The translations under genes were made by a program, and so were the position numbers. A stretch of DNA of 64,000 nt, from assembly GCA_016188915.1 (NCBI GenBank), contig JACPGU010000002.1, positions 85,287-149,286 on the forward strand. The letters are read 5' to 3'. Below the pieces are notes generated by a model. The model had not been told where the DNA came from. It saw nothing but the letters and a program-made list of their open reading frames with translations, and did no database searches. This document shows, piece after piece, positions 26,220 to 64,000 of this stretch. This DNA comes from Candidatus Microgenomates bacterium. Its GTDB lineage: Bacteria; Patescibacteriota; JACPGU01. Within the stretch, counting starts at the first letter, position 1. The number at the start of each line of letters is the position of its first letter.

Positions 26220-26220
26220 C

Positions 26221-41420: not shown

Positions 41421-41663
41421 TCACCGAAAATGTCGATGAAACAGCGGGCGACATAATACAAAACGACAACCGCCAGACCTTTCGATCCTGTCAAGATACA
41501 TGCCGACTTTGAGATTGGCTATTCTTAGTTCTCTATCTATTCTTTCGGCAAATTTTGGATCATCTCTAAGCTTTCTTTCATGTTCATTGAGAGCTTTCAC
41601 GATTTCGTTCATCTTTTCTGCCGATAATTCTCCTGACGAAGTTTTTAAAGGTCTTTTTCTCAT
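41421..41663 (-). CDS. hypothetical small protein (doubtful)
   Basis: 80-aa ORF downstream of the Mur ligase gene. The charged helical N-half looks plausible but the C-terminal tail is odd. No motif. Confidence 0.2.
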   Translation of the reverse strand: MRKRPLKTSSGELSAEKMNEIVKALNEHERKLRDDPKFAERIDRELRIANLKVGMYLDRIERSGGCRFVLCRPLFHRHFR

Positions 41664-41698
41664 CTTTCCCTCTCCTTAGCAGTAGTTTAACCTTCAAA

Positions 41699-43039
41699 CT
41701 ATCTCAAATATTTCAACACCACTTCACGATCGTTGAAAGGGACTATCTTGCCCATCACATTCATCCCGACCTCCGAACCTTTGCCGGTTATCACCACCAC
41801 ATCGCCATCGCCATGCGCCATCAGCAGAGCTTTCTCTATCGCGTGTTCGCGATTGATAATAATTTCATAATCCTCTCCTTCTTTTTTGTCGTTATCTTTG
41901 AAGCCATTCGCTATCTCTCTTACTATTCCATACGGATCATCAAAATAAGGGTCTTCGTTAGTTAGAATAGAATAATCAGCGTAACCCGAAACCACTTGCC
42001 CCATCGGTGCTCTTTTGCCCTTATCTCTCCCGCCACCACAAGCACCAAAAACAGCTACTATTTTACCTTTGTAAAGCGCTCTAATGGTAGCATAGAGGCC
42101 TCGCAAAGAATCGGGAGTCAGGGCATAATCAATGATGACATCATAGCCTTTTTTGCTAGATAATTTTTCCATTCGACCACTTACTCCCAAAAAATCCCCA
42201 AGATTTGCCGCCAAACTGTCCCAAGAAAAACCCGCCAAATGACCCACTGCTGCTGCTGCCAAAAGATTGTAGACATTTACCTCTCCCAAAAGAGGGGATA
42301 TGATTTCTGCCTTTTCTCCTCCCAGGCTTATATTAAAGGTCAATTCTTTTTGGCTTTGTTTTACATCGCTGGCTAAAATAACTTTTTCGGCAAAAAGAGA
42401 AGGTTTATTTTTTACTGAAAAGCCCATCTTGTAATCAGCGCCAAATTTCAAAAAGCTATCGGCATGCTGATCGTCTGTATTGGCAATGATAGTTTTTTTA
42501 GCCAATCCCGTCGCGGGAAAAGCTATTTTTTTCCTGGCAGATTTACCTAAACTGGCAAATATTTTTTGTTTAGCTTTTTTGTATTTTTCAAAACTGCCAT
42601 GCGACTCTATGTGCTCTGGCGAAAGATTGGTAAAAACCAATATATCAAAATTGATGCCAAAAACACGATGACTTGCTACCCCCTCAGATGACACTTCCAG
42701 CACAGCTACCCGGCAGCCGTTTTTGACCATTTTGGAAAGCATACTTTGCATTCCAAAACGCCCCAGCATTGTATTTTTGGTTTTGTTAATCCATTCTTTG
42801 TTGCCGATTTTAAAATTGGCCGTAGAGATCAAACCAGATCTTATCCCGCCCGACTGCAAAATCCAATGGATAGCATTAACCGTAGAAGTCTTGCCATTAG
42901 TACCGGTTACGCCAACAACCAATAGATTTTTGGAAGGATTGAGGTAAAAAAGAGCCGCCGCCAAAGACCAGGCAAAATAATACCAAGAAAAAACAAATCT
43001 TGGCGTAAAGCGCCGGATAAATTCTTTAATTTTTTTCAT
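41699..43039 (-). CDS. Mur ligase family protein (MurE-like) with N-terminal TM segment
   Basis: 446 aa. ATP-binding motif VGVTGTNGKTSTVNAIHWIL. Mur ligase middle and C-terminal regions follow. An unusual hydrophobic N-terminus FVFSWYYFAWSLAAALFYLN precedes them. Confidence 0.65.
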   Translation of the reverse strand: MKKIKEFIRRFTPRFVFSWYYFAWSLAAALFYLNPSKNLLVVGVTGTNGKTSTVNAIHWILQSGGIRSGLISTANFKIGNKEWINKTKNTMLGRFGMQSMLSKMVKNGCRVAVLEVSSEGVASHRVFGINFDILVFTNLSPEHIESHGSFEKYKKAKQKIFASLGKSARKKIAFPATGLAKKTIIANTDDQHADSFLKFGADYKMGFSVKNKPSLFAEKVILASDVKQSQKELTFNISLGGEKAEIISPLLGEVNVYNLLAAAAVGHLAGFSWDSLAANLGDFLGVSGRMEKLSSKKGYDVIIDYALTPDSLRGLYATIRALYKGKIVAVFGACGGGRDKGKRAPMGQVVSGYADYSILTNEDPYFDDPYGIVREIANGFKDNDKKEGEDYEIIINREHAIEKALLMAHGDGDVVVITGKGSEVGMNVMGKIVPFNDREVVLKYLR

Positions 43040-43118: not shown

Positions 43119-43907
43119 CTACCAGCTTTTGCGTATTAACTCTTTGATTTTTTCTTCACTGGTCCGATAAACATTGTCCGAAAAATAGTAAGCGCCAGCG
43201 TAGGAAGAGAGCAAAATACCTAAAGCAACTACTAAATAGCCCAAAAAATATTGCGAGGAAAAAGAAACGACAAAACCATCGATTATAATAGCAAAGAAAA
43301 ATTTGACCGCAAAATATAGAAAGAAAGTTTTTTTGAATAGAGAGTGCCAGATTTTAAATGGCCAAACATTCAAAAGATAACGCAAGAAAAGATAGGAAAT
43401 AACCGCCCCCCAGATAAAACTCCATAAAACACTGGCGACTAAAGATCCCAGTCCAACATAAAGGATAAAGACATCAGGCAACGCTAAAGCGCCTAAAGCA
43501 CCAAAATTAATAGCTACCTTAGGATAAACTATTTGCCCGCCAAAATACTGAAAAACAAAAGTCAAAATAGTGACGATAGCAAAAGACAGCGCGCCATATT
43601 TGACAGCAGCCAGATAAAGCTCTCTCTCGCCCGGAGATACTTTGAGCAGTTTGAGCAGAGCGTATAAAACATCATCGGCTTTTTGACGATAGTTCCCTGA
43701 GCCACGCAAATGAGCACTAGGGGAAGAAAGGTCATCTGGCTGAATAACTATTTTTTTGTTTTTTTCATCGGCTTCTTCAATGAAAGCCAGCGCTTCTTCT
43801 ATCTCGGAGATAGCAATACCTTGCTTTAACAAGCCCTTTTTTAGCTTTTCGGTGCCATAATCATCTAGATTGTTTCTGATGTAGGCGATTAGTTCGCTGT
43901 CAGGCAT
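43119..43907 (-). CDS. hypothetical polytopic membrane protein
   Basis: 262 aa. A soluble 90-aa N-terminus is followed by about 5 TM helices. Confidence 0.45.
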   Translation of the reverse strand: MPDSELIAYIRNNLDDYGTEKLKKGLLKQGIAISEIEEALAFIEEADEKNKKIVIQPDDLSSPSAHLRGSGNYRQKADDVLYALLKLLKVSPGERELYLAAVKYGALSFAIVTILTFVFQYFGGQIVYPKVAINFGALGALALPDVFILYVGLGSLVASVLWSFIWGAVISYLFLRYLLNVWPFKIWHSLFKKTFFLYFAVKFFFAIIIDGFVVSFSSQYFLGYLVVALGILLSSYAGAYYFSDNVYRTSEEKIKELIRKSW

Positions 43908-43976
43908 AGGATAAAAATTAGATATTTGCCACTATTTTACCTTTTTTCGTAAAGTTTGGCAAAATCTTGAAAAAAA

Positions 43977-46055
43977 TTATTCCGGACGTAATTTTTCCAT
44001 CTCGGTTAATTGCTTCGGAGAAGTAGTGATAATTTGATCTTCAGTATAGGAAGCAGTCACCTTTATGGCCACATGATTGACCCCGGCAAAAAATAATCCC
44101 TCTCCCACACGCGACTCCAAAAGCAAGGCTTTTTCGCCTTCGGTCAGATTAAAAGTCGTCCCCACAGACTCAATAGAAGCAGGAGACTGTTTCAAAAGAA
44201 GTTGCATGGAAGAGTTCGTTACGATTGCCCGACCATATTTTGAGCCCAAAAAATCTTCCACATCTTGTGTTATGGTAGTCAGTCCCAAAAAATATTTGCG
44301 GGCTCTTTTGGCGATAGAAAAAATGAATTTGGCCGCGTCTTCGTTCTCCATCATCAACCATGCCTCGTCTACTATGAGCATTCTTTTTCTTCTCTCGGCC
44401 CTGACTCTGGCCCAAATGTAATCCAAAATCATATACATCGCAATCGGCCGAAGAGAGGTCTCCAAATCACGGATATTAAAAACCACGAAACCTTTGTGCA
44501 AATCAATATTGGTCGGTTTATTAAAAATCCCCGCGAAAGTACCAGAAACGTATTTTTCCATCCTTTGCGCTAAAGACAAACCATTTTGTGTTCTCAATAA
44601 TAGATTATACAAATCCCCCATCAAAGGAGCAGGGTTTTTTTGTGATTTGGGATCTTTGGTAATTCCCTTACTCATATAAACTTCCAATAGGGAGTGCTCT
44701 ATGATAGCGTCTTCTTCGTTATTCAATTTACCAAGCAGAAGGTTGATTAATCCTTTGACGGTAATAATAGTGGCACGCAAATTATCTTCTCCAATATCCT
44801 CCGTGGCATCATCAGCCAAAGGCGGGACATCAAATGGATTGATACGTTCATTGGAGGAAAGAGAAAAATTCAGATAACTGCCACCCACTATACGACAAAG
44901 ATTTTGATATTCATTTTCTGGGTCAATAACCATCACGTCTACCCCCAACATCATATAGCGCAAAGCTTCTAATTTTACCGCGTAAGACTTACCGCCTCCA
45001 GACTTAGCAAAAACTACTGAATTGGCGTTTTCCAGCTCCTCAAAGCGGTCAAAAATAATCAAGCCACGATTGTGCCTATTGATGCCGTACATGATGCCTT
45101 TATTGCCAGTTAAATCCATGGAAGTGAAGGGGAAGCTGGTGGACAAAGACCCCGTATCCATATTGCGACGAATGTCCAAAAGATCCGCGCCCTGTGGAAT
45201 GGTAGAGCGAAAGCCTTGTGCCATCTGGAAATTGGCCCTTTTGGTGTAGATAAGATTGCCGCCCAAGGTTGTCTCTATATTTTTGGTAATTAGCTCCAAA
45301 TCATCTAAAGTTTTGGCATAAATCGTAAAATAAAGGCAAAAATGAAATAATTTTTCCTCACCGCGCGAGAGTCTGTCGCGCAGATCTTCAATGTCTTGCA
45401 TGGCTGTTTCCAGCTCGGGATTTCTAACCAGACCCTTCTGCGCTTCAATAGACAGGGCAGATTCTACTTGGCCCGATCTTTTACGCAAAGTATCCAGTGC
45501 TCCGCGCGACTCTATCGGATAAATAAACATGCCGATATCAATGGTTTGATCAATATTGATAATGGGAGATAGCCAATTAGGGAAAATGTAGCGCGGATAA
45601 TTAAAAACGAAAAGAGTACGCACATAATAATCGTTAAGCATCAGATAGGAAGGCAAGGCCTGCAAGGAAGAAGGAGAGATTAAGTCACGAATAGAGGCCA
45701 AACCTTTTTCATAAGTTTCCTGCGCTTCTTTTTCTCTTTTTATTTGCTCTTGTTTTTTGTGTTCCGTCTCTTTTTGACGAGCCAATTCTTCAGGGCTCAT
45801 TTTTGGCCCAAACAAAGAAAATCCTTTTGGAGGAGACGCTGGCGATGGTGAAATAGGCGCGGGAGGAGGAGTAACCGGAGCAGGGCTTGGGCTAGAAGCC
45901 TTGGGAGCGCTCTGATAGGCCGAATAGATGCCAGCCGGAGCAGAAACAGGAATAGTAGAAGCAGGCGCGCTTTGTGGCGGCTTGATTGCGTCAAAAGTTT
46001 TTTGATTTTGGTTGTCTGGTTTTGATTCGGGCATAATCTCTCCACGATCTAACAA
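43977..46055 (-). CDS. VirB4/TraC/PrgJ-family type IV secretion ATPase-like protein
   Basis: 692 aa. Walker A VVFAKSGGGKSYAVKLEALRYMMLGVDVMVIDPENEYQNL. Walker B RKRMLIVDEAWLMMENEDAAKFI. About 100 aa of Pro/Ser/Ala-rich low-complexity N-terminus. Confidence 0.65.
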   Translation of the reverse strand: MLDRGEIMPESKPDNQNQKTFDAIKPPQSAPASTIPVSAPAGIYSAYQSAPKASSPSPAPVTPPPAPISPSPASPPKGFSLFGPKMSPEELARQKETEHKKQEQIKREKEAQETYEKGLASIRDLISPSSLQALPSYLMLNDYYVRTLFVFNYPRYIFPNWLSPIINIDQTIDIGMFIYPIESRGALDTLRKRSGQVESALSIEAQKGLVRNPELETAMQDIEDLRDRLSRGEEKLFHFCLYFTIYAKTLDDLELITKNIETTLGGNLIYTKRANFQMAQGFRSTIPQGADLLDIRRNMDTGSLSTSFPFTSMDLTGNKGIMYGINRHNRGLIIFDRFEELENANSVVFAKSGGGKSYAVKLEALRYMMLGVDVMVIDPENEYQNLCRIVGGSYLNFSLSSNERINPFDVPPLADDATEDIGEDNLRATIITVKGLINLLLGKLNNEEDAIIEHSLLEVYMSKGITKDPKSQKNPAPLMGDLYNLLLRTQNGLSLAQRMEKYVSGTFAGIFNKPTNIDLHKGFVVFNIRDLETSLRPIAMYMILDYIWARVRAERRKRMLIVDEAWLMMENEDAAKFIFSIAKRARKYFLGLTTITQDVEDFLGSKYGRAIVTNSSMQLLLKQSPASIESVGTTFNLTEGEKALLLESRVGEGLFFAGVNHVAIKVTASYTEDQIITTSPKQLTEMEKLRPE

Positions 46056-46069
46056 TATAACGATTTTAT

Positions 46070-46798
46070 TTATCCTATCTCCATCTCTTCTGGCAATTTT
46101 TCTATAATCTCGGCCTCCATCTGCGAAGGATCAATTAATTTTTGCGTCACCGCCTGATCGGGATTGTAGGTGCCATAAAAAAGCTCAATTAGGTCCTGGC
46201 TGACTAATTGCGAGATTTTTATACCCACTCCCTGCAAACCACTGGCCGTAGTAGCTACTTTTTGCATCAAATATTTTCTTTCATCAACAAAATTATTTAC
46301 AGCCACCGTCCCTTTGGCCCCAAAAAATCGACTCATTCCACCAATCTTGGCTACTCCGGCAGGATAATGGGAAATAACTACAAAAAATCTTTTTTGCATA
46401 ATGTTGGATTGCGTAATCAGCTCGCGAACATAATTAATATATTCTGCCATCTGCGTTCGCAAAAGCTCATTGGATTCTTGGTTTTTTCTTTCCTCAATAG
46501 TTTTCAAATAAACATCCAAATCCAGTCTCCTGGATTGCAATACTATCTGAATAGGAAAATCCAAAGAATTCAAAAAGCTTTGATAGCCATAAATAATAGA
46601 GTCGCGCTCTATCTCTGATTTCAATTCAAAATTGACTGCCGAACACATCAAAACAGCCTTCATACTACCGTCTTTTAGGATCAGAATGCCTTCGCGTATT
46701 TGATCAATATCTAAAAAAGACTGAGTGGCTGTGCTTTTTGCGGTCGATGCTTCCAGCGACGGATTGGTAATATTTTTTTGTGTTTTATTATCTGCCAT
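46070..46798 (-). CDS. hypothetical protein co-operonic with T4SS-like genes
   Basis: 242 aa, no TM helix, no motif. There is a 14-nt gap to the ATPase gene. Confidence 0.4.
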   Translation of the reverse strand: MADNKTQKNITNPSLEASTAKSTATQSFLDIDQIREGILILKDGSMKAVLMCSAVNFELKSEIERDSIIYGYQSFLNSLDFPIQIVLQSRRLDLDVYLKTIEERKNQESNELLRTQMAEYINYVRELITQSNIMQKRFFVVISHYPAGVAKIGGMSRFFGAKGTVAVNNFVDERKYLMQKVATTASGLQGVGIKISQLVSQDLIELFYGTYNPDQAVTQKLIDPSQMEAEIIEKLPEEMEIG

Positions 46799-46851
46799 CA
46801 GAATATTTGATTATTTGCCTACTTGATTAGTTGATTACTTGTTTGCTCCTA

Positions 46852-47478
46852 TCATTTCTTTGCTATCACGCCAGACAATGATGCCGCCAGATCTCGGAAG
46901 TCAGTGGTCTCTCTAGGGGTCACTGTCACATTTTCCAAAGCTTGCTCCAGGTCAGAAAAAACATCCTCCAAATCTTCTTCTATATTAGCATCTGCCACCG
47001 GGGCATTGGCAACTCCAACAATACGATCGGGGCTTATGCTACCACCTACCGCTCCGTGCGTATCCATAATGGTAGCCAATTCCGCCAAACGTGACTCTAT
47101 TATCCCGCTAGCCGCTTGACGGGCAATACCTTTTTTAGATTCTTCTGATTCAACCACTGACTGAGTTACCATATTTTTTACCCTTACCGATTTTTGCCAA
47201 GTTTTAATCTTCGGCTCTATAGTAAAAGCAGTAAAGAAAAGTAAAAAGTCCAAAAATGGCCTCTCATTAATTTTGACAAAGATCAAAGCGAAGCTCAAAG
47301 TAACCACCGGCAAAGCCAAAATAATGAAAAGGAGAAAGTTAGTAGAAGCAATAGCCAGATAAAGGACATAGGTAATCGCGCCACCCCCCACCATATACAA
47401 AAATTGCTTGAGCGTAAAGGGCCCGAATATTTTGTCTTCAATATCTATATTTTGCGGTATTTTATAATTGTCTTGCAT
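46852..47478 (-). CDS. PrgI/VirB3-like small two-TM protein
   Basis: 208 aa. The N-terminus ...KIFGPFTLKQFLYMVGGGAITYVLYLAIA is followed by a second TM helix, matching the PrgI-family pattern. The C-terminal 100 aa are acidic. Confidence 0.5.
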   Translation of the reverse strand: MQDNYKIPQNIDIEDKIFGPFTLKQFLYMVGGGAITYVLYLAIASTNFLLFIILALPVVTLSFALIFVKINERPFLDFLLFFTAFTIEPKIKTWQKSVRVKNMVTQSVVESEESKKGIARQAASGIIESRLAELATIMDTHGAVGGSISPDRIVGVANAPVADANIEEDLEDVFSDLEQALENVTVTPRETTDFRDLAASLSGVIAKK

Positions 47479-47505
47479 AAAAATTAACTAAAATCATTAC
47501 CTCGT

Positions 47506-50500
47506 TTATGGACCATAGTATATACCAGAAGTAGGCTGGCCTTGACTCGGTGGCTCTTTCTTTTTAGAGGCTGTTTTTTCTTGAACAGCTTTACCGCTAG
47601 CCAAGGTTCCGATATTTTTCTTTAATATTCCCTCTCTTGCCCAATCAATAGCCCTGGTAGTAGCGTCTATCTGCATTCTGATTTCCTCAGGATCAATCTG
47701 GTCAGTCTCTCGTCCGGCAAACTGCGGAGCAAAAACTTCTTTGGCTTTTCTAATCGCTTCAGAAAAATTATTCTGTAAATCATTAGTGATGCCCTGCATA
47801 TCATTCGTAATCTTTGTATACAACCCTTGTTCATTGCCTCCATACATCTGCAAAACTGATGGATTATCCAAAAATCCTTTTAACCGACTAGCGGCTTGCA
47901 ACTGCACATCATTTTTGCGACGAGCAAAAATCTGATCTAGATTGGAACGAATATTAACATTTTTCATAATCTTGGCCAGATCGCCAGCGTTATCACCTGG
48001 AGGCATCTCTAGATTCGCGTCCGACATATCCAGCTTTACATCAATACCATTTTCAGACAACACTTTGTTTATCTCGTCTTGGTCTCCGCTCATCATTGTT
48101 CTCTTAATAGCGTCTTTGGCGTCTTGAGAGATACCATTCTTTAAATTCATCAAAAACTGGTCTATCGTTCCATCTTGAGCAAACATATCACTTTTATTTC
48201 TAGCGCTAGCTTGCGCCAGATAACCCCATTGCTTGGATTCCAAAAGCCCAGTATCCATACTGCTAGCCTGCTGGCGTGGCATAGTAGTCAACAATTTTTC
48301 CGCCTCTTCGACAGGATTGAACCCCTCTGGAACGGGTTTGTATTTCTCTGGTTTGTCAAAGCCTTCTTCTCCGGCAAATTTAGATTGCCTTTTCATTTTC
48401 TCAACCGAATCCATAGTGATTCTATCTTCGCGGCTTACGCCCAAAGACTGGAAAAATCCTCTGGCTTCTTCTTGCCTTCTGGCGCCTTTTTCGCCGTTGC
48501 TTAACATCTGTAAGGCCTTCAAGGCAATGGCCCTTTCTTTATCGCTTTTATCGTTCATCAAAGTATTATACAGAGCCGAAGCAGCCACGCCCTGATCGGC
48601 TTTCTTCTGCGCTTCTTCTTTAATCTCCAACTCGGAGGCTCTCTTTGCCCACTTAGTAAAGGCACCTCTACTACTAGCCTTGCCAAAGGCTTTTTCTTGT
48701 TCTTTTTGAAATCTTTCGGCATTTTCTTCTATCATCTTGGGAGCGTTCTGGATAGTCAGTCCAGCGCTGGTGCCTTTTTTGGCTACTCTTGCCAATCCAT
48801 ATTTTAATTTTCCCCACCCACTAGAGTCTTTCAAATTGCCTTGATCGTCTTTGAACGTTTTGTCCAAATCCATAGAAGCCACTTTTTGTCTTTGTCCTTT
48901 GAGCCTTGCCCCCGCTGCTTTTTTCAAAGATTTAGCCGTAGCACTACCCAAAGGACCTTTTTTGCCACTAGCATATTCGGAAACCGCTTTCATAATATCA
49001 CCCCCCGCTTTCATCGGATAAGTGGCCGCGATATACAAGATCACTCCGGCTGTGATGAGTTGTAAAAGTCTCGGGGTGTCAGAAGTATATTCCGCATCAG
49101 GCAGAGGAGCTACCTCTAGCCCTGCCACAGCGATAGTTTTGGCCGCGACATACAAAAGCAGGGCCACCATCGGTCCCATCATCGCCCACTTCATAAACAT
49201 ATCCCACCATTTGCCGGTCTGCTCTTTGATTGCTTTGACCGGCGCGACATTAGCCAAATAGGGAATGGCCGAAAACATAAACAAAATATTCAAAACTATT
49301 ACCCGAACCCAAAGCAAAAGATATAGATAAAGCAAAATAATAGAAAAAGCCCAGGACAAAATAACTTGAACAAGGGCCGCGCCAAAAGTTTTATCGGCCA
49401 ATTGGTCAATAGTTTCCTTGCCCAGACCAAAAAGAGAATCTAAGGAAGCGCTGGAGCTAGTCGCATTTGGCTCGCCGAAAAGGAAAAAATTGGTCAAAAC
49501 ATTCATAAAAAGAATAATGAAATTGCAAATCGCCAAAGAAAAATTAACCAGTAAAATAGCTCCCACAATAGCCGGAATCATTCGACGAAACTGCCAAGTC
49601 TTCAAATCATAGCCAACAATATTAAGTAGTGCCATCGCCAAAAAAGAAAGCAAAAAGCCAATATTAATAATATTTCTAATAGTTCCCCAGACTTCCACTA
49701 CCTGATTATTACCTTCGGTCACCCCATAAACCAGCAGAACTTTTGACAAAAGCTCCGGATTGATCCAACCAAAAATAAATCTTTTTATCGCCAAAAGCAG
49801 AGACAAAAACCAACAACCGATACTGACAAAAACATCATGTTTTCCGGAAAACAATGTGAAAAAATTATAACTTGGCGGACAAGTATTTTTATTTGCTCCA
49901 GGCCCTAGTGGGTCTTTGCTCAAAGACTGTTCTCCTTTTAATTCCAATAATTCTTCTATTTCCTCCGATTTCTGAACAAAAGCTGTATATTCCGAACAAT
50001 CGCTTAGCGCCCCCGAACAAGAGCTATTGATAGCGGTTTGAGCCAACAATACGACTGTTTGCATATTGCTGATTTCTGTGGTTGCTTTTGTACAAGCATC
50101 TACTCTTTCTTGTGAAATTTCGTTGCCATCTTTGTCTTTGGCCTCATCGCCATTTTTAACAAAATAACAGAAATCTTTACTACTAGGTTTCCAGCGATCT
50201 CTTTCTGCCATAAAAGCCTCTGTGTCTGCCGTGCTAATATTTTTCAATTCTTCTGCTGTTTGCACTGCTCTGGTGTCCTCTACTATTTTTGAATAAAGAT
50301 CTTGCAGTTTTGTTATTGATTCTTTTTCTTCATCGGAAAGTTCATTTAACTGACTATAGGTCAAATTCTGAGGAGTATTGTCATAATAAGCCACCTGAAG
50401 ACCCCAATCTTTGAGAACATTTTCCATGGCAGAATCAAGCTGATTGGCATTTTGTCCTGTTATTCTTTCTACAAAAACCATCTTTGACTCATCTGTATAC

Positions 50501-50877
50501 AGACACTCTCTGGCTTTGTTGTCGTCTAGGCTTTCTATTTTATCTGTAGAGGGAAAACATACCGGCTCAATTTTGTTTCCCGTTGCCTGATTATAAAAAA
50601 GAGCATAACGAGCACCATCGGTTTGACTTTTCTCCCAAGTACAAGAAACCGAATAATCTCTTTTATATCCAGTGAGAAAATTACCCTTTTTGCCAATTAC
50701 TTCAAAAGAGCAATCTACAGAACCGAATTTATCTGGAGTACTTTTTAGTTCAGACAGCTTGTTAACCACTGCCAAAGCAGGATTTTGATTCAGCCCCGCC
50801 ATCAAAAAAGGCAACACCAAAAAGGTTGCCAAGACAATAAATATCGCGCGACGGATTTTTTGCCCTCTTTTACTCAT
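47506..50877 (-). CDS. VirB6/TrbL-like giant polytopic membrane protein
   Basis: 1123 aa. Signal peptide, then a 330-aa Cys-containing extracytoplasmic domain, then a block of at least 6 TM helices (LLLAIKRFIFGW...IVGAILLVNFSLAICNFIILFMNV...). A roughly 500-aa hydrophilic C-terminal domain follows. Confidence 0.55.
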   Translation of the reverse strand: MSKRGQKIRRAIFIVLATFLVLPFLMAGLNQNPALAVVNKLSELKSTPDKFGSVDCSFEVIGKKGNFLTGYKRDYSVSCTWEKSQTDGARYALFYNQATGNKIEPVCFPSTDKIESLDDNKARECLYTDESKMVFVERITGQNANQLDSAMENVLKDWGLQVAYYDNTPQNLTYSQLNELSDEEKESITKLQDLYSKIVEDTRAVQTAEELKNISTADTEAFMAERDRWKPSSKDFCYFVKNGDEAKDKDGNEISQERVDACTKATTEISNMQTVVLLAQTAINSSCSGALSDCSEYTAFVQKSEEIEELLELKGEQSLSKDPLGPGANKNTCPPSYNFFTLFSGKHDVFVSIGCWFLSLLLAIKRFIFGWINPELLSKVLLVYGVTEGNNQVVEVWGTIRNIINIGFLLSFLAMALLNIVGYDLKTWQFRRMIPAIVGAILLVNFSLAICNFIILFMNVLTNFFLFGEPNATSSSASLDSLFGLGKETIDQLADKTFGAALVQVILSWAFSIILLYLYLLLWVRVIVLNILFMFSAIPYLANVAPVKAIKEQTGKWWDMFMKWAMMGPMVALLLYVAAKTIAVAGLEVAPLPDAEYTSDTPRLLQLITAGVILYIAATYPMKAGGDIMKAVSEYASGKKGPLGSATAKSLKKAAGARLKGQRQKVASMDLDKTFKDDQGNLKDSSGWGKLKYGLARVAKKGTSAGLTIQNAPKMIEENAERFQKEQEKAFGKASSRGAFTKWAKRASELEIKEEAQKKADQGVAASALYNTLMNDKSDKERAIALKALQMLSNGEKGARRQEEARGFFQSLGVSREDRITMDSVEKMKRQSKFAGEEGFDKPEKYKPVPEGFNPVEEAEKLLTTMPRQQASSMDTGLLESKQWGYLAQASARNKSDMFAQDGTIDQFLMNLKNGISQDAKDAIKRTMMSGDQDEINKVLSENGIDVKLDMSDANLEMPPGDNAGDLAKIMKNVNIRSNLDQIFARRKNDVQLQAASRLKGFLDNPSVLQMYGGNEQGLYTKITNDMQGITNDLQNNFSEAIRKAKEVFAPQFAGRETDQIDPEEIRMQIDATTRAIDWAREGILKKNIGTLASGKAVQEKTASKKKEPPSQGQPTSGIYYGP

Positions 50878-50990
50878 TTGTTTTTATCTAAATTTTCCCA
50901 ACAAAAATCTTTCAGCAATATTACTTAAGTATAGCATAGCTCACCAGCTTTTGATAACTAATCTTTTTATGGCTAAAAACAGGCAAAATA

Positions 50991-51788: not shown

Positions 51789-51826
51789 AAAGCCATATTC
51801 ATAAACCTCATTGCCGTAATCATAAA

Positions 51827-51849
51827 ATACCCCCTCTCAGAGGGGGTAT
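51827..51849. terminator. bidirectional rho-independent terminator
   Basis: ATACCCCCTC-tca-GAGGGGGTAT, a perfect 10-bp stem, between converging genes. Confidence 0.65.
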
Positions 51850-51865
51850 TATTGTGTTTATCTTT

Positions 51866-57928: not shown

Positions 57929-60900
57929 ATGGCCGATCTCTCAAACCAAAACAAAAATCCTAAAAATTCTACCGGTCCTGATATCAAGGGCTATGTTCAG
58001 GGTGCCAAATCAGCCGCCAGTATGACTCGTGGCCAAGAAGGCAAATCTAAAGAACAGATAAAAAAAGAGCGTGAAGAGGTTGGCGGAGCAACCCTAAAAG
58101 GCATCGCTGATTATAGTACTGGCGGAAAAGGGTCGAGCATCATTAGTAAATTTGAGAATGCTCCCCTGATCGGCCGTTTGATCAAAAAAAGAGAAGCTGA
58201 GCTAGGGAAAAAAATAGAAAAGCCCTTGGCCACTGCCGGCAAAGCTACCGGTTTGTCTAAAAAAAGTCGTGGCGCCACCTCTGTCGCCGAGCCAGAAGAA
58301 AACGAGGAAGAATCTTTTGATGAAGAAGGGAGTCTAGAAGAAGAGGAGGATTCTCGCGCCAATCAAGCCCGCCAAACGGCTGCTACCGCTGCTAAACAAA
58401 AAGCAAAGCAAGCCGCCATTCGCGCCACTATGCCCTATTGGGGTGCGGCTTGTGTTGTTTTGGTGATTTCTTTTTTGGTTTTTATGATTGTCTTGGGACT
58501 GATTAACGCCTTTGTTAATCATGGCTCTGCTGGTAAAACAAAAGGGCAATTGCTATCCAAGGGCGATCCTTCTGACGAAGCCCTCAAGGATCAAGTAATG
58601 GCTAACGCTGGTGAAGACGCTGCCCTGTCTCGTTCTATCGCTAGTCAAACAGAGTCTGCGTTGGCATCAGTACAGGGAATACTAGATGTCGCCAAAGAAA
58701 AAAATCTACCCGCCGTCCAAGAAGAAGCGCAAACTTTGCAAGCCGAAATATTGGCCTTGGGCACCGGGAATTCTTCCGCAGATAAAGCCAATATTGAAAG
58801 GCTCCAAAAAAGAGTCTCTATTCTACTAGGAGATAAAGAAGACTTCAAAGAAGCGTCTGAAAAAGTCAAAACCACCAACCCTGGACAAAATAAAGACGCG
58901 GTAGGTGATATGGAAAAATTAAGTCGCGTCCGAGAGGAGATGACCAAAAGCCCCGAAAGCAAACAAGGCCTGATTTTATTAAAAACTCAATTGCAAAAAT
59001 TAGAAACTATTGTCGCTACTACCGTTTCTTCCAAGTTGGTTATTTCGGAAAAAGATAAATATTATATTCGCTCCTATCAGGTAGACCGTCGCGTGTTAAA
59101 GGCTTTAAATTATTTGGTAACACCAATTAATCAGGGTGGCGCCGGATTTCGCAAAATAAAAGTGGGGCGGATTAAAAGCTCTTACGATTCGGAGGGGAGA
59201 AAGTTTTCTAAAGAATGGGATTTTACCACTAGCGAAGATCGCTCTGTTAGTCCACATTTTTCTGGTCAAGCTTTTGATGTGACGGCCATTGATTATGTGG
59301 ATAGAAGACTTTACAAAAAAGGCATTGTTAGAAAAAAAATCAAAAAGCTTCCCAGCAAAGATATTCTAGTAGCTCTCCAGTCTAACAAATCTGGTAAAGG
59401 CATTGGCAATTCCCTGACTAGTAGTGGCGAAACTTTTGGTTTGCTGGCCGAGGATGCCTCTACTTCAGTACTGCTTGCCCAAATCAGCGAGATGACCGGC
59501 TATAATCTAGAGGGGCTAGACGTTGGCAGCGGAAGCTTTGCTGACCTTACTAAAAATATTGGCTTGGCCATTTTGGCCGAAGAGCTAGGTTCTTCCATGG
59601 ACTCTGATCAAAGCAATGGTTCTTTTGAGGATTTGCTGAAAAATGTCGGGGCCGAAGCTATCGCCGACTGCCTGGATCTGCCAAAAAGTTCTTTTGATGT
59701 TTACGGAATAGAAAATTTGGCAGTCGGCGATAGCCAACTGGCAGCCCTGGATTTTGCCGGCAAACCAGCCGCCACACTAGAAGAAAATATCGGTCGCGCC
59801 CTAACCGAGCAAAGGCTCAATCTCGCTCCTGGCTCTTTGATTGGCGCAAGCTCTGAAGAAATATTAAAGAACCTAGGCAAAAGAAAATTGGAGAAAAATC
59901 TAGGGCTACCTAATCTTTCTCTGGAAAATATTTCTAATAATACCGACGTTGTCGCCCACATCGGCCAGATTGTCATTGAGCAAAGAATAAATCTACCAAA
60001 AAATAGTCTGAGTAGCAACAATCTACCTGATATAAAAAGTGCTCTTGGAGAAAAATTATTCCGTAACGCCTTTGCCATTAATCCGGCCTCTACTGATACT
60101 ATTTTGGGGCTAGATCCCAAGGGAACGAGATTGACTTTTGACTCCAACGACCCAGAGCTAGGAACATTAAAACAGATGAATGGAAAATACATTGTCGCGC
60201 CATCGCAAAAATTAGCGTCTGGACAATATTCTGTTCTTGATTACAAAAAAATGGTTGGGGCCAGCCTTCTTCAGACAAAAATCGGCTCTTTTGCCACATA
60301 CCCTATAGCCACAACAAAAATACTGCCTTTCTCCGGTATTATTATGGTCCCCTCTAGCTTGCTAGGCTCACAAAAAGACGAGGCGATGGACATGCCCGAT
60401 GGTAGTATCAAAAAAATATTGGAAGAAAAATCGAACATAGAGTCGGCACTGTCCGATATCGGTCTGGACGAAATAATCAAAAGGCTCACCGATAATAGCA
60501 ACGAGCGCGATGTTTTGTACCAATGGCATTCTCTCAACAAAAATCTGTCATCAGAAAAAAGAGTTGAGCTAGACACTATTGGTTTCCGTCCGACCATAAA
60601 TACTCCCTTAAAGAAAGCGTCTATTAGCGCCCTAGACGATTCTTCCTCTATCTCTTTGAACGCTGACAGTCTCGGCAATACTTTTAATCTTGTCAGTCGC
60701 TACGGGCCAACAGAAACAAAAATAAATGATAAAAAAAATCTTTCCAAGGCGGAGATATCTTCTCTGGACATAAAAATAGGAGAAAAATTGGCCAAAGACG
60801 AGCTGGAAAAATACAAAGATGACTATGAAAACGAAACGACTGATTCTTTCTTCGCCTATATCACCGAAAGCTATTTTGATGAGTCTCTAGCTCTGCCAGA

Positions 60901-63900
60901 TAATGCCCTGGAAGATATTTTACTAAATAACAAAGCAGGGGAGGTTTTTGCTCAAATAGGCAACAATAAAACCACTGTAATCAAAGAAACAAATGGTCTT
61001 TTGGGCAAAGGCGTGGGAGTAGATGCTCAGCTTGACAGTCTTTATCAAAAAAGAGCGCGACTAGAAGAAGATTTAGACTTTTTCAAATCAAATGCCGAAT
61101 CGGCAACAACAGATAAAGAAGAAAAAGAATATGAAAAAGAGGCCGATGCTTCTAAAAAAGAGCTGAATAAAATCAATAGCCAAATTCGTCTTTTAGAATA
61201 TGAAAAAGAAAGCCTCTACCAGGAGACACAAAAACAAGCCAAAGACAAGGTCTCTTGCTCTAAAAAATCCATCAGCTCTATCATTAATAATCAAGACACA
61301 GGTAGCCTAGTGGAAAGTATCGCCAAAATCGGCGCTTCTGTTTTGGAGTCCGATTTGGAATTACCGGCAGGCTCTCTGTCCGGCGCGCTGACCACTATCC
61401 AGGCCTTTGGCACTAAGCCAAAACCAGAAGAAGTCTCGGCTATCCAATTGCAATCCATTGGCATTCGTTATCTGGAAGATAGCCTGGGCTTCAAAAAAAG
61501 AGTCTTTAACGAACCAAATGTTTTGGGTGTAGTGATTTTGGCTGGCGGATATGATAAATTTTTTGCCAAACTTTTCCCTGGCAGATCGGGCAATGAAATG
61601 GCCAAAAAACTACCAGTAGAAAGTAATCCGGCCTATTTCAAAGCAGCCGGCGAAGATCTAGACAAAAGACTCGGGATTGGACGGGGCGCAAGCTATGATT
61701 TCTTGACCACAAAGATAAACACGGCTGAGTTTACTGCTATGGTTGGACGAGCCTATTTGGATAGCACTTCGTCGGATAGCCTAAACGGCACTGTTAACAC
61801 CACCAATTTTGGTTCTGTCATTAACTCAGACAATATTATCTCTCTTTTGGCCGGTAACGCCAAAGACATTGGACTAAAAATTGGCGCTACCTATGTAGAA
61901 AGCGGACTGGAATTACCACCAGGCACTGTCACCGGCATTATCCATGGCGCCGATAGCTCTTGCCAAGACTTCAATGTCTCTTTGGGTTGCATAGAAAATA
62001 TTTTGGCTGCCGCCGGCAAAGACAAATTAGCAGGTTTTATGGGTGTCTATGAAGATATCTCGGCCAGCGACAATAGCAAAGAAAAGATAGCCCAAAATAA
62101 AATTGAGAGCGCTCTTGGCGGATCTTTGCCGGCTGGCTGGTTTGAAGGAGAAAGTCTTTTGGATATCAAAAATAATGTTACTAAAAAACAAAATTTAGAC
62201 GCTCGCTATGTGGACCAACAAATATTACAGGCCTTCGGTTTTGATACTAAAAATCCGAATTTTAATTTAAATGTTTTACGGCAAATAGATTTTTTACAAA
62301 ATACGGATTACTACAATGTCGCCATTAATGTAGACCGCAAACTGGGATTGTCTGAGGGTACCTCCGCTAAATTATTCCGAGATAATATCTCGGTCACCAA
62401 TTATAAAAAGGAAGTTTATTCTAATTATGCCGATGGCCGCATAGACGAGTTGGGCAAAAATCTTTTAGGGGAAGACGCGCAAAAAATAATGGAAAAGTTT
62501 GATCTTCGTCCAAGCGAACTCAAGGATCTCTTGAAAAATCCCGACGACCTCAAAAATAGAGCCATATTTAATGCTATTCCAGCGCGCGAGATGAGCCTTC
62601 TTTTTGGGCTAGGGCTGGGAGACAAATTACCCATACCGATAGAAGGCGAATTCACTGCCAATTTCGCCCAAAAACAAGTAGAAGAAACCCTAGGACTTAG
62701 CAATGGTTCTTTCTCTCCCGATCGTCCCATTAGCGAAGTAGCCAAAATCAATGGAGCAAAAAATTTCGCTCGTGCTTTCAGGATCACTATACCATCCGAC
62801 AAAAAAACCGATGCCGAGGTCTTACAATTTCTAAATAGTGACGTTTTCTCGGGCGGTGCCTATTGGCAATTGCCCACCACCGAGTTTTTGACTGGCAATA
62901 TTGATGCCGCGCTCAAACTAGACAAAGCAGGGAGGATGACCCAAAAGCTTTTGTCTGGCTCTTTGTCTATCGCCAATTATCTTGAGAGCGTTCGCCAAAA
63001 TCAATTCAAAAAATTAGACACTGACGGCTTTTTGGGATTTTTGGCCAGTAATAATATAGAAGAATTGGGCAGTATCCCTACCTATATTGCCACTGCCAAA
63101 ACAGCTCTTGATTTAATAAAAAACCCCGATGCTCTAAAAACACCGGGCACACAACTTCAGATTCTTTCCGCTTTGAAAAATTCTGCTGGCATTGACTTGG
63201 ACGACAAATGGGGGCTTTCTCCTGGCACTCTAGAAAATTTCATTGCTAACCCCAAAGAGGGCCGCGGCATTTTGATTTCCGAGGGAATTCGCATGTTGGG
63301 CGAAGAACAATTCTTGGACGACCCGAAGGCCCAAATAGCTTTGTCTCTCGCCTATAATTACTTGATTCCGAATAAACCAGGAGCGGTCGGAGATGCCCTG
63401 GGCCGCCTAATCAGTGAGACCAATCCCAATCAAAACAGTTGTGGCGTTATCCCGACACAGACCATTCAAGAAGATTTCAGCTTAGGACAAACTAGTGTCT
63501 GCCAGTTTAGTCTGATGAATACTTTGCAAAACAGAATAAACAAACTCACAGACGAGATGGTCCCGGGAGACAATAATGGGGTAAAAGTGCCCATCAACGA
63601 TCTGACTAATATTATCAATGGCGACATGCGCTCTCTTTCTGTCATCGGCATCGCCTTTACCGTCAATTCTGTCAATGCCACAAAAGACCCCAACGGGGAA
63701 AGCACAGGAATTATCCCGGCTGGCTTTCAGGTTAGTTACGAAGAAATCAAGGGTGCTATTTGGGGAGACACGGGCAAGAGGCAGGATGTTTCTAAAAAAA
63801 CATCGAATGATTATTTCGCCAACAATGCCTTCCTCTTGGCTAGCAATCCCGAGGCCTACCAAAAAGGCCTGGACGAAGCCATTAACGAAGCGCAAGACAA

Positions 63901-64000
63901 AGTAATCCCAGATGCTAGGCGCGACCTGCAATTCAAATATGTTGACGCTCAGGTGGCTGCTCTTTCCAGTAAGCTGGTGGGCAATGAGGTTGTTCCGCCT
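57929..64000 (+). CDS. giant protein (at least 2024 aa, 3' end outside window), single N-proximal TM segment
   Basis: Hand translation from the ATG at 57929 found no stop through nt 64000 (2024 codons); an in-frame TAA at 57923-25 lies just upstream. The track lists only short antisense ORFs across these 6 kb. The ORF is missing from the track presumably because there is no stop within the window. It starts 11 nt after the TolB-like gene. One TM helix at about aa 165-195 (MPYWGAACVVLVISFLVFMIVLGLINAF). The rest is hydrophilic with coiled-coil-like stretches. Confidence 0.6.
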   Translation, partial: MADLSNQNKNPKNSTGPDIKGYVQGAKSAASMTRGQEGKSKEQIKKEREEVGGATLKGIADYSTGGKGSSIISKFENAPLIGRLIKKREAELGKKIEKPLATAGKATGLSKKSRGATSVAEPEENEEESFDEEGSLEEEEDSRANQARQTAATAAKQKAKQAAIRATMPYWGAACVVLVISFLVFMIVLGLINAFVNHGSAGKTKGQLLSKGDPSDEALKDQVMANAGEDAALSRSIASQTESALASVQGILDVAKEKNLPAVQEEAQTLQAEILALGTGNSSADKANIERLQKRVSILLGDKEDFKEASEKVKTTNPGQNKDAVGDMEKLSRVREEMTKSPESKQGLILLKTQLQKLETIVATTVSSKLVISEKDKYYIRSYQVDRRVLKALNYLVTPINQGGAGFRKIKVGRIKSSYDSEGRKFSKEWDFTTSEDRSVSPHFSGQAFDVTAIDYVDRRLYKKGIVRKKIKKLPSKDILVALQSNKSGKGIGNSLTSSGETFGLLAEDASTSVLLAQISEMTGYNLEGLDVGSGSFADLTKNIGLAILAEELGSSMDSDQSNGSFEDLLKNVGAEAIADCLDLPKSSFDVYGIENLAVGDSQLAALDFAGKPAATLEENIGRALTEQRLNLAPGSLIGASSEEILKNLGKRKLEKNLGLPNLSLENISNNTDVVAHIGQIVIEQRINLPKNSLSSNNLPDIKSALGEKLFRNAFAINPASTDTILGLDPKGTRLTFDSNDPELGTLKQMNGKYIVAPSQKLASGQYSVLDYKKMVGASLLQTKIGSFATYPIATTKILPFSGIIMVPSSLLGSQKDEAMDMPDGSIKKILEEKSNIESALSDIGLDEIIKRLTDNSNERDVLYQWHSLNKNLSSEKRVELDTIGFRPTINTPLKKASISALDDSSSISLNADSLGNTFNLVSRYGPTETKINDKKNLSKAEISSLDIKIGEKLAKDELEKYKDDYENETTDSFFAYITESYFDESLALPDNALEDILLNNKAGEVFAQIGNNKTTVIKETNGLLGKGVGVDAQLDSLYQKRARLEEDLDFFKSNAESATTDKEEKEYEKEADASKKELNKINSQIRLLEYEKESLYQETQKQAKDKVSCSKKSISSIINNQDTGSLVESIAKIGASVLESDLELPAGSLSGALTTIQAFGTKPKPEEVSAIQLQSIGIRYLEDSLGFKKRVFNEPNVLGVVILAGGYDKFFAKLFPGRSGNEMAKKLPVESNPAYFKAAGEDLDKRLGIGRGASYDFLTTKINTAEFTAMVGRAYLDSTSSDSLNGTVNTTNFGSVINSDNIISLLAGNAKDIGLKIGATYVESGLELPPGTVTGIIHGADSSCQDFNVSLGCIENILAAAGKDKLAGFMGVYEDISASDNSKEKIAQNKIESALGGSLPAGWFEGESLLDIKNNVTKKQNLDARYVDQQILQAFGFDTKNPNFNLNVLRQIDFLQNTDYYNVAINVDRKLGLSEGTSAKLFRDNISVTNYKKEVYSNYADGRIDELGKNLLGEDAQKIMEKFDLRPSELKDLLKNPDDLKNRAIFNAIPAREMSLLFGLGLGDKLPIPIEGEFTANFAQKQVEETLGLSNGSFSPDRPISEVAKINGAKNFARAFRITIPSDKKTDAEVLQFLNSDVFSGGAYWQLPTTEFLTGNIDAALKLDKAGRMTQKLLSGSLSIANYLESVRQNQFKKLDTDGFLGFLASNNIEELGSIPTYIATAKTALDLIKNPDALKTPGTQLQILSALKNSAGIDLDDKWGLSPGTLENFIANPKEGRGILISEGIRMLGEEQFLDDPKAQIALSLAYNYLIPNKPGAVGDALGRLISETNPNQNSCGVIPTQTIQEDFSLGQTSVCQFSLMNTLQNRINKLTDEMVPGDNNGVKVPINDLTNIINGDMRSLSVIGIAFTVNSVNATKDPNGESTGIIPAGFQVSYEEIKGAIWGDTGKRQDVSKKTSNDYFANNAFLLASNPEAYQKGLDEAINEAQDKVIPDARRDLQFKYVDAQVAALSSKLVGNEVVPP

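Follow-up and report, generated by a model that had tools for sequence, protein, structure and literature searches.

The window analysed here, a stretch of 64,000 nucleotides from a Candidatus Microgenomates genome, carries five co-directional ORFs on the minus strand between positions 43119 and 50877, all of them located where the original prediction, made from the sequence alone, had placed them. The ORFs are separated by short gaps of 27, 53, 35 and 69 nt, followed by another 79 nt before murE (Table 1), and publicly available assemblies of this organism carry identical gene calls. That they are real genes rather than chance ORFs is indicated by the existence of orthologous clusters in other genomes, where VirB4 identity is 60-78%. 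Operon boundaries were inferred from the short gaps and from consensus scans, which place a promoter-like site 50 nt 5′ of the start codon of the VirB6-like gene.

Table 1. Genes and features of the locus, ordered by position in the window.
Feature	Position	Strand	Basis or detail
MurE-type Mur ligase without N-terminal domain	41699..43039	-	TIGR01085
262-aa membrane protein	43119..43907	-	Lineage-specific neighbour
VirB4-type ATPase, 685 aa, without extreme N-terminal segment	43977..46034	-	NF045971, PF19044
TrsD/TraC-like soluble protein, 242 aa	46070..46798	-	VirB4-model matches
PrgI/VirB3-like two-TM protein, 208 aa	46852..47478	-	PF12666
Extended VirB6/TrbL-like polytopic membrane protein, 1123 aa	47506..50877	-	Profile and transitive evidence
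Promoter-like site, TTATCA-18-TATACT with TG	50928..50957	-	Consensus scan
GGDEF diguanylate cyclase, 267 aa	51866..52669	-	PF00990, 1.6e-43
Single-TM protein with PEGA and PD40/TolB-like β-propeller, 485 aa	52915..54372	+	TM 72-90
Membrane-anchored SLT lytic transglycosylase, 395 aa	54394..55581	+	PF01464, 33.7 bits vs GA 21.3
Single-TM PD40 β-propeller paralogue, 377 aa	56785..57918	+	
Giant surface protein, 2360 aa in full	57929..64000, continues past window end	+	

By homology, the ATPase is a VirB4 of the CD1110 family, as had been proposed: it scores 367.2 bits against NF045971 (cutoff 325; E 1.7e-109), also matches PF19044 (3.4e-28) and carries the Walker A motif AKSGGGKS at residues ~343-350 and the Walker B motif MLIVDE at residues 552-557. 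Read from a TTG codon, its ORF spans 43977-46055 (692 aa); the ATG at 46034 is the more likely start, given the GGAG that precedes it by 7 nt. The Pro/Ser-rich N-terminus that had been described as unusual is borne out as well, with proline, serine and alanine accounting for 47% of residues 1-100 in a disordered stretch of ~95 aa. More than 7800 homologues of this protein exist and, among the 120 matches listed, all named ones belong to CPR.

The 242-aa protein, previously taken for a soluble unknown, is identified by its model matches as TrsD/TraC-like, i.e. as a detached homologue of the VirB4 N-terminal segment. It covers positions 99-280 of the VirB4_plasma model NF045975 (E 7.9e-9), directly abutted by the match of the ATPase at 281-893, and further matches NF045971 (positions 10-119) and PF11130. 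Against the TrsD model NF041427 it reaches an E value of 8e-8, but only 32 bits versus a cutoff of 200, and its public record lists PF26593 TraC-like without any qualifying mark. VirB4 is therefore split here, an arrangement in keeping with the 52 of 80 loci in which TrsD forms its own ORF beside virB4; a separate 274-aa TrsD orthologue (1e-48) occurs in Pontibacillus, and a PrgI-TrsD fusion in Embleya. The same homology rules out the 242-aa protein as a VirB8 candidate. Its upstream neighbour passes the PF12666 check (42.9 bits; GA 27) that the prediction of a PrgI-type two-TM protein called for: the PrgI domain (residues 6-91), with TM segments at 26-44 and 50-68, is followed by an acidic tail of ~115 aa, and the profile of its family matches pCF10 PrgI. 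PrgI lies directly upstream of TrsD/VirB4 in 50 of 80 loci.

The 1123-aa protein is best described as VirB6-like, a putative divergent and extended member of the VirB6/TrbL family. An N-terminal anchor (residues 11-29) precedes a presumably extracytoplasmic domain of ~310 aa that holds 9 of the 11 cysteines, a 6-TM core (residues ~350-622) and a charged C-terminal domain of 433 aa. The protein itself stays below the gathering score of every Pfam family, its N- and C-terminal domains match no family, and a single-sequence structure model is unusable (pLDDT 51). Its public record carries PF19590 TrbL_3, marked '(weak)'. Relatives share only the TM core (residues ~336-676), and 10 of 34 such cores match PF04610 TrbL (best 1.4e-7), with the homologue from locus L001 scoring 31.5 bits against a GA of 25.9. 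A VirB6 profile seeded from the window also picks out R388 TrwI (13.0 bits) and pCF10 PrgH (12.9 bits), versus at most 0.7 bits for 12 other proteins, including eight polytopic membrane proteins from the window. Together, these matches uphold the proposed VirB6/TrbL assignment. The VirB6-like gene always precedes the PrgI gene, with both on one strand. Since VirB6 is scarce in Microgenomatia according to a survey (PMC12102498), its identification in this class constitutes a modest addition.

The earlier label 'minimal' understates the locus, which has several conserved neighbours. The active site of the GGDEF cyclase reads GGEEF, and its I-site RxxD. Every close relative, as well as three Gracilibacteria-type loci, likewise has a cyclase gene co-directional with and directly 5′ of the T4SS genes; in the window, consensus scanning assigns the gene a 12/12 promoter of its own at 52758-52730 and, at 51826-51850, a terminator hairpin. 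The 485-aa propeller protein is encoded on the opposite strand. Its relatives have virB4 no more than 10 kb away in 33 of 84 non-duplicate loci, and in 26 of these the propeller gene is downstream of virB4 and co-directional with it. The 395-aa SLT protein, a candidate VirB1-like lytic transglycosylase, has its ES catalytic motif at residue 119 and an uncharacterised C-terminal domain of ~190 aa; an orthologue occupies the equivalent position in locus L083, and there is weak similarity (8.6e-4) to the virB4-adjacent SLT protein of L086. The giant surface protein has one TM segment (residues 174-192) and matches no Pfam family, and its homologues lie downstream of virB4 in ten non-duplicate loci, with L006-L013 showing the order VirB4 - Y - propeller - Z - giant. 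Both the retention of the cyclase directly upstream and the recurrence of membrane β-propeller, giant surface protein and SLT hydrolase beside virB4 are further modest additions.

Four adjacent genes thus described, encoding the VirB6-like protein, PrgI/VirB3 and a two-piece VirB4 (TrsD plus the 685-aa body), make up the core of a cytoplasmic-membrane translocon. Their order is common to at least 50 of 86 related loci across CPR classes and in close relatives, and also occurs in plasmids of Actinomycetota and Bacillota. Pfam searches and direct phmmer searches with five such proteins agree that there is no relaxase or T4CP in the 64-kb window or in ~8 kb beyond its right end, and no VirB2 pilin was found in either stretch, as anticipated for the window; no VirB8-like component was found at the locus. 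With the ATPase, PrgI and VirB6-like assignments holding, the proposal stands that this is a T4SS core of Gram-positive type, belonging to an episymbiont with a reduced genome, rather than a conjugative element. Neither of the two findings named in advance as refuting it was made: the ATPase does not group with FtsK/HerA translocases, and no relaxase or VirD4 adjoins the locus within the window or the ~8 kb past its right end. The locus very probably represents a chromosomal Patescibacteria-type T4SS derived from monoderm MPF_FATA conjugation machinery.

The system was correctly recognised, but it is of a kind already known from the ultra-small Patescibacteria (CPR). The same system is needed for epibiotic growth of Southlakia epibionticum (Wang 2023 Cell, PMC10633639), and a catalogue of 2,417 CPR genomes found virB4 in the company of TrsD, PrgI and VirB6, with relaxases almost entirely absent (Quiñonero-Coronel 2025 Microb Genom, PMC12102498). 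For the clade, vertical inheritance of the cluster is reported, with a VirB4 tree that agrees with the species tree and with purifying selection (PMC12102498). Shared with this clade (S. epibionticum SEML1_0006-0019, PMC10633639; PMC12102498) are the CPR-type VirB4 with an adjoining separate TrsD, PrgI/VirB3 and VirB6, a chromosomal position near dnaA/dnaN, the lack of relaxase and T4CP nearby and an associated peptidoglycan hydrolase. In contrast, the window has no VirB2-like pilin array, even though such arrays are reported to be common in Microgenomatia; the hydrolase, an SLT protein, is encoded divergently and upstream instead of downstream of virB4; VirB6 is present despite its scarcity in the class; and the 262-aa membrane protein and the upstream GGDEF cyclase are lineage-specific extras.

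Outside the CPR, the pCF10 Prg/Pcf system of Enterococcus faecalis, the MPF_FATA prototype, has the same PrgH(VirB6)-PrgI(VirB3)-PrgJ(VirB4) order (there followed by a cell-wall hydrolase), an ATPase of the same NCBIfam family (CD1110) and a monoderm architecture without VirB7, VirB9 and VirB10. However, PrgJ is one chain of 796 aa, in contrast to the two VirB4 pieces of 242 and 685 aa here, PrgH has 266 aa compared to 1123 aa, and the T4CP PcfC, relaxase PcfG, adhesin PrgB and VirB8-like PrgL of pCF10 were not found here. The Trs clusters of pGO1/pSK41 (TrsC-TrsD-TrsE) and the related clusters on monoderm plasmids of Pontibacillus (NZ_CP062975) and Embleya (NZ_CP108778) share the separate TrsD-type protein followed by a short VirB4, in an identical VirB6-like/PrgI/TrsD/VirB4 order. 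Yet VirB4 identity is only 35-39%, and Embleya, besides its fused PrgI, encodes a T4CP and a replication-relaxation protein directly after VirB4. Extended VirB6 proteins such as those of Rickettsiales (PMC12857230) similarly combine a core of at least five TM segments with large hydrophilic domains, but outside the TM core no relationship in sequence is detectable.

As for how the machine might work, PrgI would hold TrsD at the membrane, a role to which the natural PrgI-TrsD fusion of an actinomycete plasmid points. TrsD would in turn dock the ATPase body via the disordered P/S-rich linker, reconstituting a full VirB4. Characterised VirB4 ATPases are hexameric, and the ATPase oligomer may power passage through the VirB6-like channel, while the nearby SLT hydrolase would open the cell wall and the Cys-rich outer domain of VirB6, the β-propeller proteins and the giant surface protein could make contact with the host cell. 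The most likely function is T4CP-independent transfer of macromolecules, protein or other, between epibiont and host cell rather than conjugation. As to direction, export toward the host is tentatively preferred, at somewhat less than even confidence, and import of host material is possible but rather doubtful. An inward DNA or nucleotide uptake machine akin to H. pylori ComB or archaeal Ced, feeding an organism unable to make nucleotides, is likewise considered doubtful: T4CP and relaxase are absent as in ComB, and import is among the hypotheses in the literature (PMC11665869), but the CedB and CedD model matches of the ATPase (E 2e-8 and 1.5e-5) reach only 33 and 24 bits versus cutoffs of 700 and 600 and are confined to the P-loop region, and no ComEC- or Ced-type channel gene adjoins the locus. 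The T4SS, but not competence (comEC), is essential in S. epibionticum, a result compatible with import or its absence (PMC10633639, PMC12857230).

It is also rather doubtful that the 262-aa protein, and possibly MurE too, are true T4SS subunits that could stand in for VirB8 or link secretion to the building of the cell wall. The 262-aa gene is present in the cluster as originally described, yet its status as a component is unproven: the protein (an N-terminal three-helix module of ~50 aa, a disordered linker and a bundle of 4-5 TM segments) has no recognisable fold and belongs to a tiny, narrow-lineage family that one close relative lacks. The Mur-ligase-like gene is indeed next in the row, and its position downstream of the T4SS genes is conserved in close relatives. 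Its product matches TIGR01085 with 360 bits over model positions 71-471, lacking the N-terminal Mur-ligase domain, while the odd N-terminal TM segment ascribed to it is a hydrophobic stretch below the TM threshold used. MurE is probably a housekeeping protein outside the machine.

It is very unlikely that the T4SS genes are instead remnants of an integrative conjugative element, decayed or cryptic, that has lost its relaxase, T4CP and integrase or has them at another site. The nearest plasmid relatives are conjugation-type clusters, most CPR genomes reportedly have T4CP homologues elsewhere (PMC12102498), and a recombinase-bearing island lies at 20.6-30.6 kb, 13-23 kb from the T4SS locus. However, pyk, recX, tsaD, holA and polA separate the two, all core genes are intact with their catalytic motifs retained, GC content is the same as in the flanks (0.41 vs 0.39-0.42), and 64 kb plus 8 kb are free of relaxase and T4CP. 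Moreover, the locus is surrounded by housekeeping genes, with dnaA about 15-20 kb away (dciA-dnaN-dnaA follows just past the right end of the window, in the ~8 kb beyond), and the synteny GGDEF ... murE-polA-holA-tsaD is held across genomes whose VirB4 proteins are only 60-78% identical. Finally, the idea of an FtsK/HerA-type translocase in a cluster that is no T4SS at all, to which the ATPase's public name 'DUF87 domain-containing protein' and a PF01935 DUF87/HerA-central domain (E 2e-6) might point, was tested and can be rejected with near certainty, since the protein reaches 367 bits with the VirB4 model, above the curated cutoff, versus 14 bits with HerA (E 0.013; cutoff 970), and its gene adjoins those of PrgI, TrsD and VirB6.

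The five co-directional ORFs of the original prediction were all found on the minus strand, separated by the short gaps it had described (27, 53, 35 and 69 nt across the run), with a further 79 nt between the gene of the 262-aa membrane protein and the murE-type gene. The start of the VirB4 ATPase is more plausibly ATG 46034, giving a 685-aa product, since a GGAG lies 7 nt upstream. Public assemblies of this organism, labelled 'Candidatus Microgenomates bacterium', contain the same gene calls.

Features of the type IV secretion locus, its neighbours and the rest of the window
Feature	Position	Strand	Remark
Class III adenylate/guanylate cyclase	15688-16611	-	C-terminal TM segment
Mobile/defence-like island	20630-30569		
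tRNA-Ser	20638-20726		overlapped by large serine recombinase
LOOT RNA (RF03000)	28119-28247	-	Rfam match, 74.2 bits vs gathering score 46.4
polA-murE stretch	40213-41699		1.5 kb
murE-type gene	41699-43039	-	Mur ligase model match
262-aa membrane protein	43119-43907	-	ORF
VirB4 ATPase	43977-46055	-	ORF; 692 aa from TTG
242-aa TrsD/TraC-like protein	46070-46798	-	ORF
208-aa PrgI	46852-47478	-	ORF
1123-aa VirB6-like protein	47506-50877	-	ORF
236-aa single-TM protein without family	51078-51788	+	between GGDEF and VirB6 genes
Terminator hairpin	51826-51850		11-bp stem, strong, bidirectional
GGDEF cyclase	51866-52669	-	GGEEF site and RxxD I-site intact
485-aa PEGA/PD40 β-propeller	52915-54372		membrane-anchored
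PD40 β-propeller protein	56785-57918		membrane-anchored
Giant single-pass surface protein	57929-64000 (window end)		2360 aa full length; homologues beside virB4

The window belongs to an ordinary Patescibacteria/CPR chromosome (rpoD, dnaG, pyk, recX, tsaD, holA, femAB, polA), also holds a glycosyltransferase/O-antigen cluster, and shows matching GC content in the operon and its flanks (0.41 vs 0.42). Directly past its right end lie dciA, dnaN and dnaA (18236-21134 of locus L091 in our comparison set), and the GC skew per sub-window is negative over almost the whole window, turns positive in the 58-60 kb interval alone and lies close to zero from 60 to 64 kb. The skew change and these three genes together put the likely origin of replication some 15-20 kb away from the T4SS locus.

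The ATPase is a VirB4, as had been proposed, and not an FtsK/HerA translocase: it scores 367.2 bits (E = 1.7e-109) against a cutoff of 325 on NCBIfam NF045971 (VirB4-like, CD1110 family), the same family that names PrgJ of pCF10, and 14 bits (E = 0.013) against a cutoff of 970 on HerA NF040819. Both nucleotide-binding motifs are intact (Walker A, AKSGGGKS, with G346, G348, K349 and S350 invariant across 24 homologues; Walker B, MLIVDE, at 552), and each named match among the 120 best homologues is a CPR/Patescibacteria entry. The unusual Pro/Ser-rich N-terminus is likewise real, Pro, Ser and Ala making up 47% of the first ~95 residues, and is unconserved among relatives. The full VirB4 N-terminal domain is not on this chain, whose match begins at position 175 of the CD1110 model and 281 of VirB4_plasma, and whose profile begins at PrgJ residue 224; the missing segment is supplied by the preceding gene, that of the 242-aa protein, directly upstream of virB4. 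On NF045975 (VirB4_plasma) the 242-aa protein occupies positions 99-280 (E = 7.9e-9) and the ATPase 281-893, and on NF045971 the two occupy 10-119 and 175-734, respectively. Because one product matches the VirB4 models over the N-terminal segment and the other over the remainder, VirB4 is encoded in two pieces, TrsD and an ATPase body.

Of the earlier description of the 242-aa protein as a soluble unknown, the first half holds, as it has no TM segment, but the second does not, given its TrsD/TraC-like match to the VirB4 N-terminus; the same two observations rule out a VirB8-like protein. Its match to the TrsD/TraD family NF041427 has an E-value of 8e-8 at 32.3 bits (cutoff 200), its Pontibacillus orthologue is found at E = 1e-48, and PF26593 ('TraC-like') is recorded for it unmarked (E <= 1e-5) and is absent from the matches of our own Pfam scan. 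A sequence search of the PDB with this protein gave no match, and no fused TrsD domain was detected in Gracilibacteria-type VirB4s. A frameshift artefact as the cause of the split is ruled out by its retention elsewhere: TrsD and VirB4 occur as separate ORFs in 52 of 80 loci from other CPR genomes, and a phylum-wide survey counted 1,664 TrsD genes adjoining virB4 (PMC12102498).

The closest plasmid VirB4s are from monoderm bacteria (35-39% identity; the best, 38.7% to the window ATPase). The Embleya plasmid NZ_CP108778 carries the same core, directly followed by a T4CP and a replication-relaxation protein, with PrgI and TrsD as one 349-aa fusion (7377-8426, annotated 'PrgI family protein'; PrgI at residues 14-101, TrsD at 136-241) ahead of a short VirB4, and Pontibacillus has a separate TrsD of 274 aa. 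The presence of the same core in these plasmid clusters means that the module is older than the CPR. Actinomycete and Bacillus-group plasmids have the split VirB4 in common with the window, as well as the gene order VirB6-PrgI-TrsD-VirB4.

The 208-aa protein is PrgI, as predicted (PF12666, 42.9 bits vs a gathering score of 27), with the two-TM hairpin expected of this family (26-44 and 50-68), and PrgI stands directly upstream of TrsD/VirB4 in 50 of the 80 loci. The gene directly upstream encodes the 1123-aa protein, in which an N-terminal anchor is followed by a ~310-aa domain containing 9 of its 11 cysteines, then by a core of six TM segments and lastly by a charged tail of 433 aa; the TM core is the only part conserved in relatives. 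This protein itself reaches no Pfam threshold and has no PF04610 match at E <= 1; TrbL_3 (PF19590) is on record for it with the flag '(weak)', and a direct homologue search returned only the query. Pfam found nothing in its N- and C-terminal domains or in the PrgI tail, and the VirB6-core profile matched no PDB sequence.

Its family is more informative. An iterative search seeded from the window collected 37 VirB6-like proteins from 35 loci, always with PrgI downstream. Pfam TrbL/VirB6 is the sole family to recur among 34 family cores, matching 10 of them (best E = 1.4e-7) and one above the gathering score, and the homologue from the related locus L001 (phmmer E = 6e-24 to the 1123-aa protein) scores 31.5 bits on TrbL, above its gathering score of 25.9. 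The family profile gives 13.0 bits to TrwI of R388 and 12.9 bits to PrgH of pCF10, as against at most 0.7 bits for 12 other proteins, eight of which are polytopic membrane proteins encoded in the window; hhalign P-values were 4e-4 for TrwI, 0.043 for PrgH and at least 0.13 for the other proteins tested, the ranking against the single PrgH, TrwI, PrgJ and TrwK sequences being correct but weak. A single-sequence model of the core had a pLDDT of 51 and a pTM of 0.30, too low in quality for a fold comparison. Family profile and transitive TrbL evidence thus bear out the earlier reading of a VirB6/TrbL-like protein with large extra domains, and on these sequence comparisons we regard the protein as an extended and divergent VirB6. 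This assigns a VirB6 candidate in Microgenomatia, a class in which VirB6 was reported to be scarce (PMC12102498).

The earlier observation that no conjugation genes are visible held as well. Pfam (E <= 1e-5, ORFs of at least 120 aa) revealed no relaxase or coupling protein in the window, phmmer searches of it with PcfC, PcfG, TrwB, TrwC and the Embleya T4CP and replication-relaxation proteins gave a best E-value of 0.017, and neither a relaxase nor a T4CP was found in the ~8 kb past its end. Likewise, an integrase linked to the T4SS genes along with a relaxase or T4CP had no Pfam match among window ORFs of at least 120 aa. An iterated VirB2-type profile that finds 50 pilins in 20 loci finds none in the window or in close relatives, in agreement with the reported absence of a pilin.

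What distinguishes the window is the loss of DNA-processing partners and a fixed chromosomal location. In being chromosomal, near dnaA/dnaN and free of a nearby relaxase or T4CP, the locus resembles the Patescibacteria-clade T4SS, and the original prediction of a T4SS-like cluster of the episymbiotic reduced-genome type correctly recognized a known kind. In contrast to the window, this clade frequently, though not universally, has VirB2-like pilin genes near virB4 (PMC12102498). The system has been surveyed across the phylum (PMC12102498), reviewed (PMC12857230) and found to be essential in Southlakia epibionticum (PMC10633639). With essentiality for epibiotic growth established in the one species tested, one more example adds little alone; the increments are the VirB6 in Microgenomatia, the split VirB4 and gene order shared with plasmids, and the conserved GGDEF, propeller and giant-protein neighbours.

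From the observed gene content, motifs and synteny, we infer how the parts might assemble and work. PrgI would tether TrsD at the membrane, a direct contact supported by the fusion in Embleya and by the VirB3-VirB4 fusions reported for some conjugative systems (PMC12102498), the natural PrgI-TrsD fusion predicting how the pieces come together. TrsD would complete the VirB4 N-terminal domain and dock the ATPase body via the flexible Pro/Ser-rich linker, the ATPase ring may then drive transport via the VirB6 channel, and an SLT enzyme could open the peptidoglycan. Cargo and direction are reported to be unknown for the whole family (PMC11665869); we lean towards T4CP-independent export toward the host cell rather than import.

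Close relatives share a longer arrangement, in which an SLT hydrolase gene and a PEGA/β-propeller gene are divergent from the run GGDEF-VirB6-PrgI-TrsD-VirB4-(262-aa)-MurE-PolA, and every gene of it is present in the window. The SLT domain of the 395-aa hydrolase (PF01464, 33.7 bits vs 21.3) retains the catalytic Glu in an ES motif, and its gene, 3.5 kb from the T4SS operon, keeps the same position in the related locus L083, making the protein a candidate VirB1-like cell-wall hydrolase with a putative functional link to the T4SS. A LAS/M15 peptidase in its C-terminal half and in part of the giant protein was rejected, the likeness being at motif level (E ~0.04-0.1) with no Pfam match.

A promoter and terminator scan gave the GGDEF gene a perfect promoter of its own as well as a strong terminator; the terminator hairpin is shared with the 236-aa gene, which is absent from the relatives L081 and L083. 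Pfam found nothing in the 236-aa and 342-aa neighbours. Three Gracilibacteria-type loci likewise have a GGDEF gene directly upstream of virB4. The co-directional placement of a GGDEF cyclase directly upstream of T4SS genes in two CPR lineages unrelated to each other (the window and the comparison loci L018, L022, L055, L081, L083 and L085) suggests a link between c-di-GMP and the T4SS; a literature search linking c-di-GMP with Patescibacteria secretion returned nothing specific.

In 33 of 84 non-duplicate loci, relatives of the 485-aa propeller are encoded no more than 10 kb from virB4 (26 of these downstream and co-directional), and homologues of the giant protein lie downstream in 10 non-duplicate loci, with the order VirB4-Y-propeller-Z-giant in comparison loci L006-L013. 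In many CPR loci, propellers and surface proteins of ~2000-2400 aa lie downstream of virB4 and co-directional with it; in the window lineage they are divergent. The main text of neither key paper (PMC10633639, PMC12102498) mentions either protein. That in several CPR lineages, this one included, the T4SS belongs to a larger, conserved module for host contact (GGDEF, propeller, giant), beyond what the main text of the published surveys describes, is a tentative and on balance rather doubtful reading. If true, the upstream GGDEF gene would imply c-di-GMP control of secretion, and the propeller and ~2000-aa surface protein, whose genes lie within or next to the virB4 operon, could form an envelope-spanning scaffold or be an adhesin or substrate, standing in for the absent VirB8, pilin and adhesin functions. 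We flag GGDEF, propeller, giant protein and SLT hydrolase as candidates for regulation and host contact.

Three related genomes have an orthologue of the 262-aa membrane protein (34-39% identity) at the equivalent position; a fourth close relative and all 80 more distant loci have none, and its family is small, with 9 clusters among 5.8 billion and ~10-16 representatives among 1.84 billion. In a model built from an MSA (pLDDT 77.7), three helices form an N-terminal module, which a disordered linker joins to a helical bundle in the membrane; the model, all-helical and without an NTF2 match, rules out a VirB8-like protein. The adjoining MurE is missing its N-terminal Mur-ligase domain, with the model match starting at position 71, and has a short hydrophobic stretch instead, a length of 446-455 aa being kept in relatives. 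Between polA and murE there are only short, unconvincing ORFs (80, 95 and 73 aa, the last Cys-rich and zinc-ribbon-like), and this stretch is an insertion because the two genes are directly adjacent in the relative L081.

Elsewhere in the window, with housekeeping genes lying between it and the T4SS locus, the apparent mobile/defence island carries the large serine recombinase at tRNA-Ser, a Schlafen/AlbA_2 protein, a second resolvase, two large proteins without family and a secreted staphylococcal-nuclease protein with Ig-like repeats. The LOOT RNA site also belongs to this island, where it is flanked by the nuclease gene and a 210-aa ORF. Finally, the class III cyclase, together with the GGDEF gene, shows nucleotide second-messenger signalling in this reduced genome.
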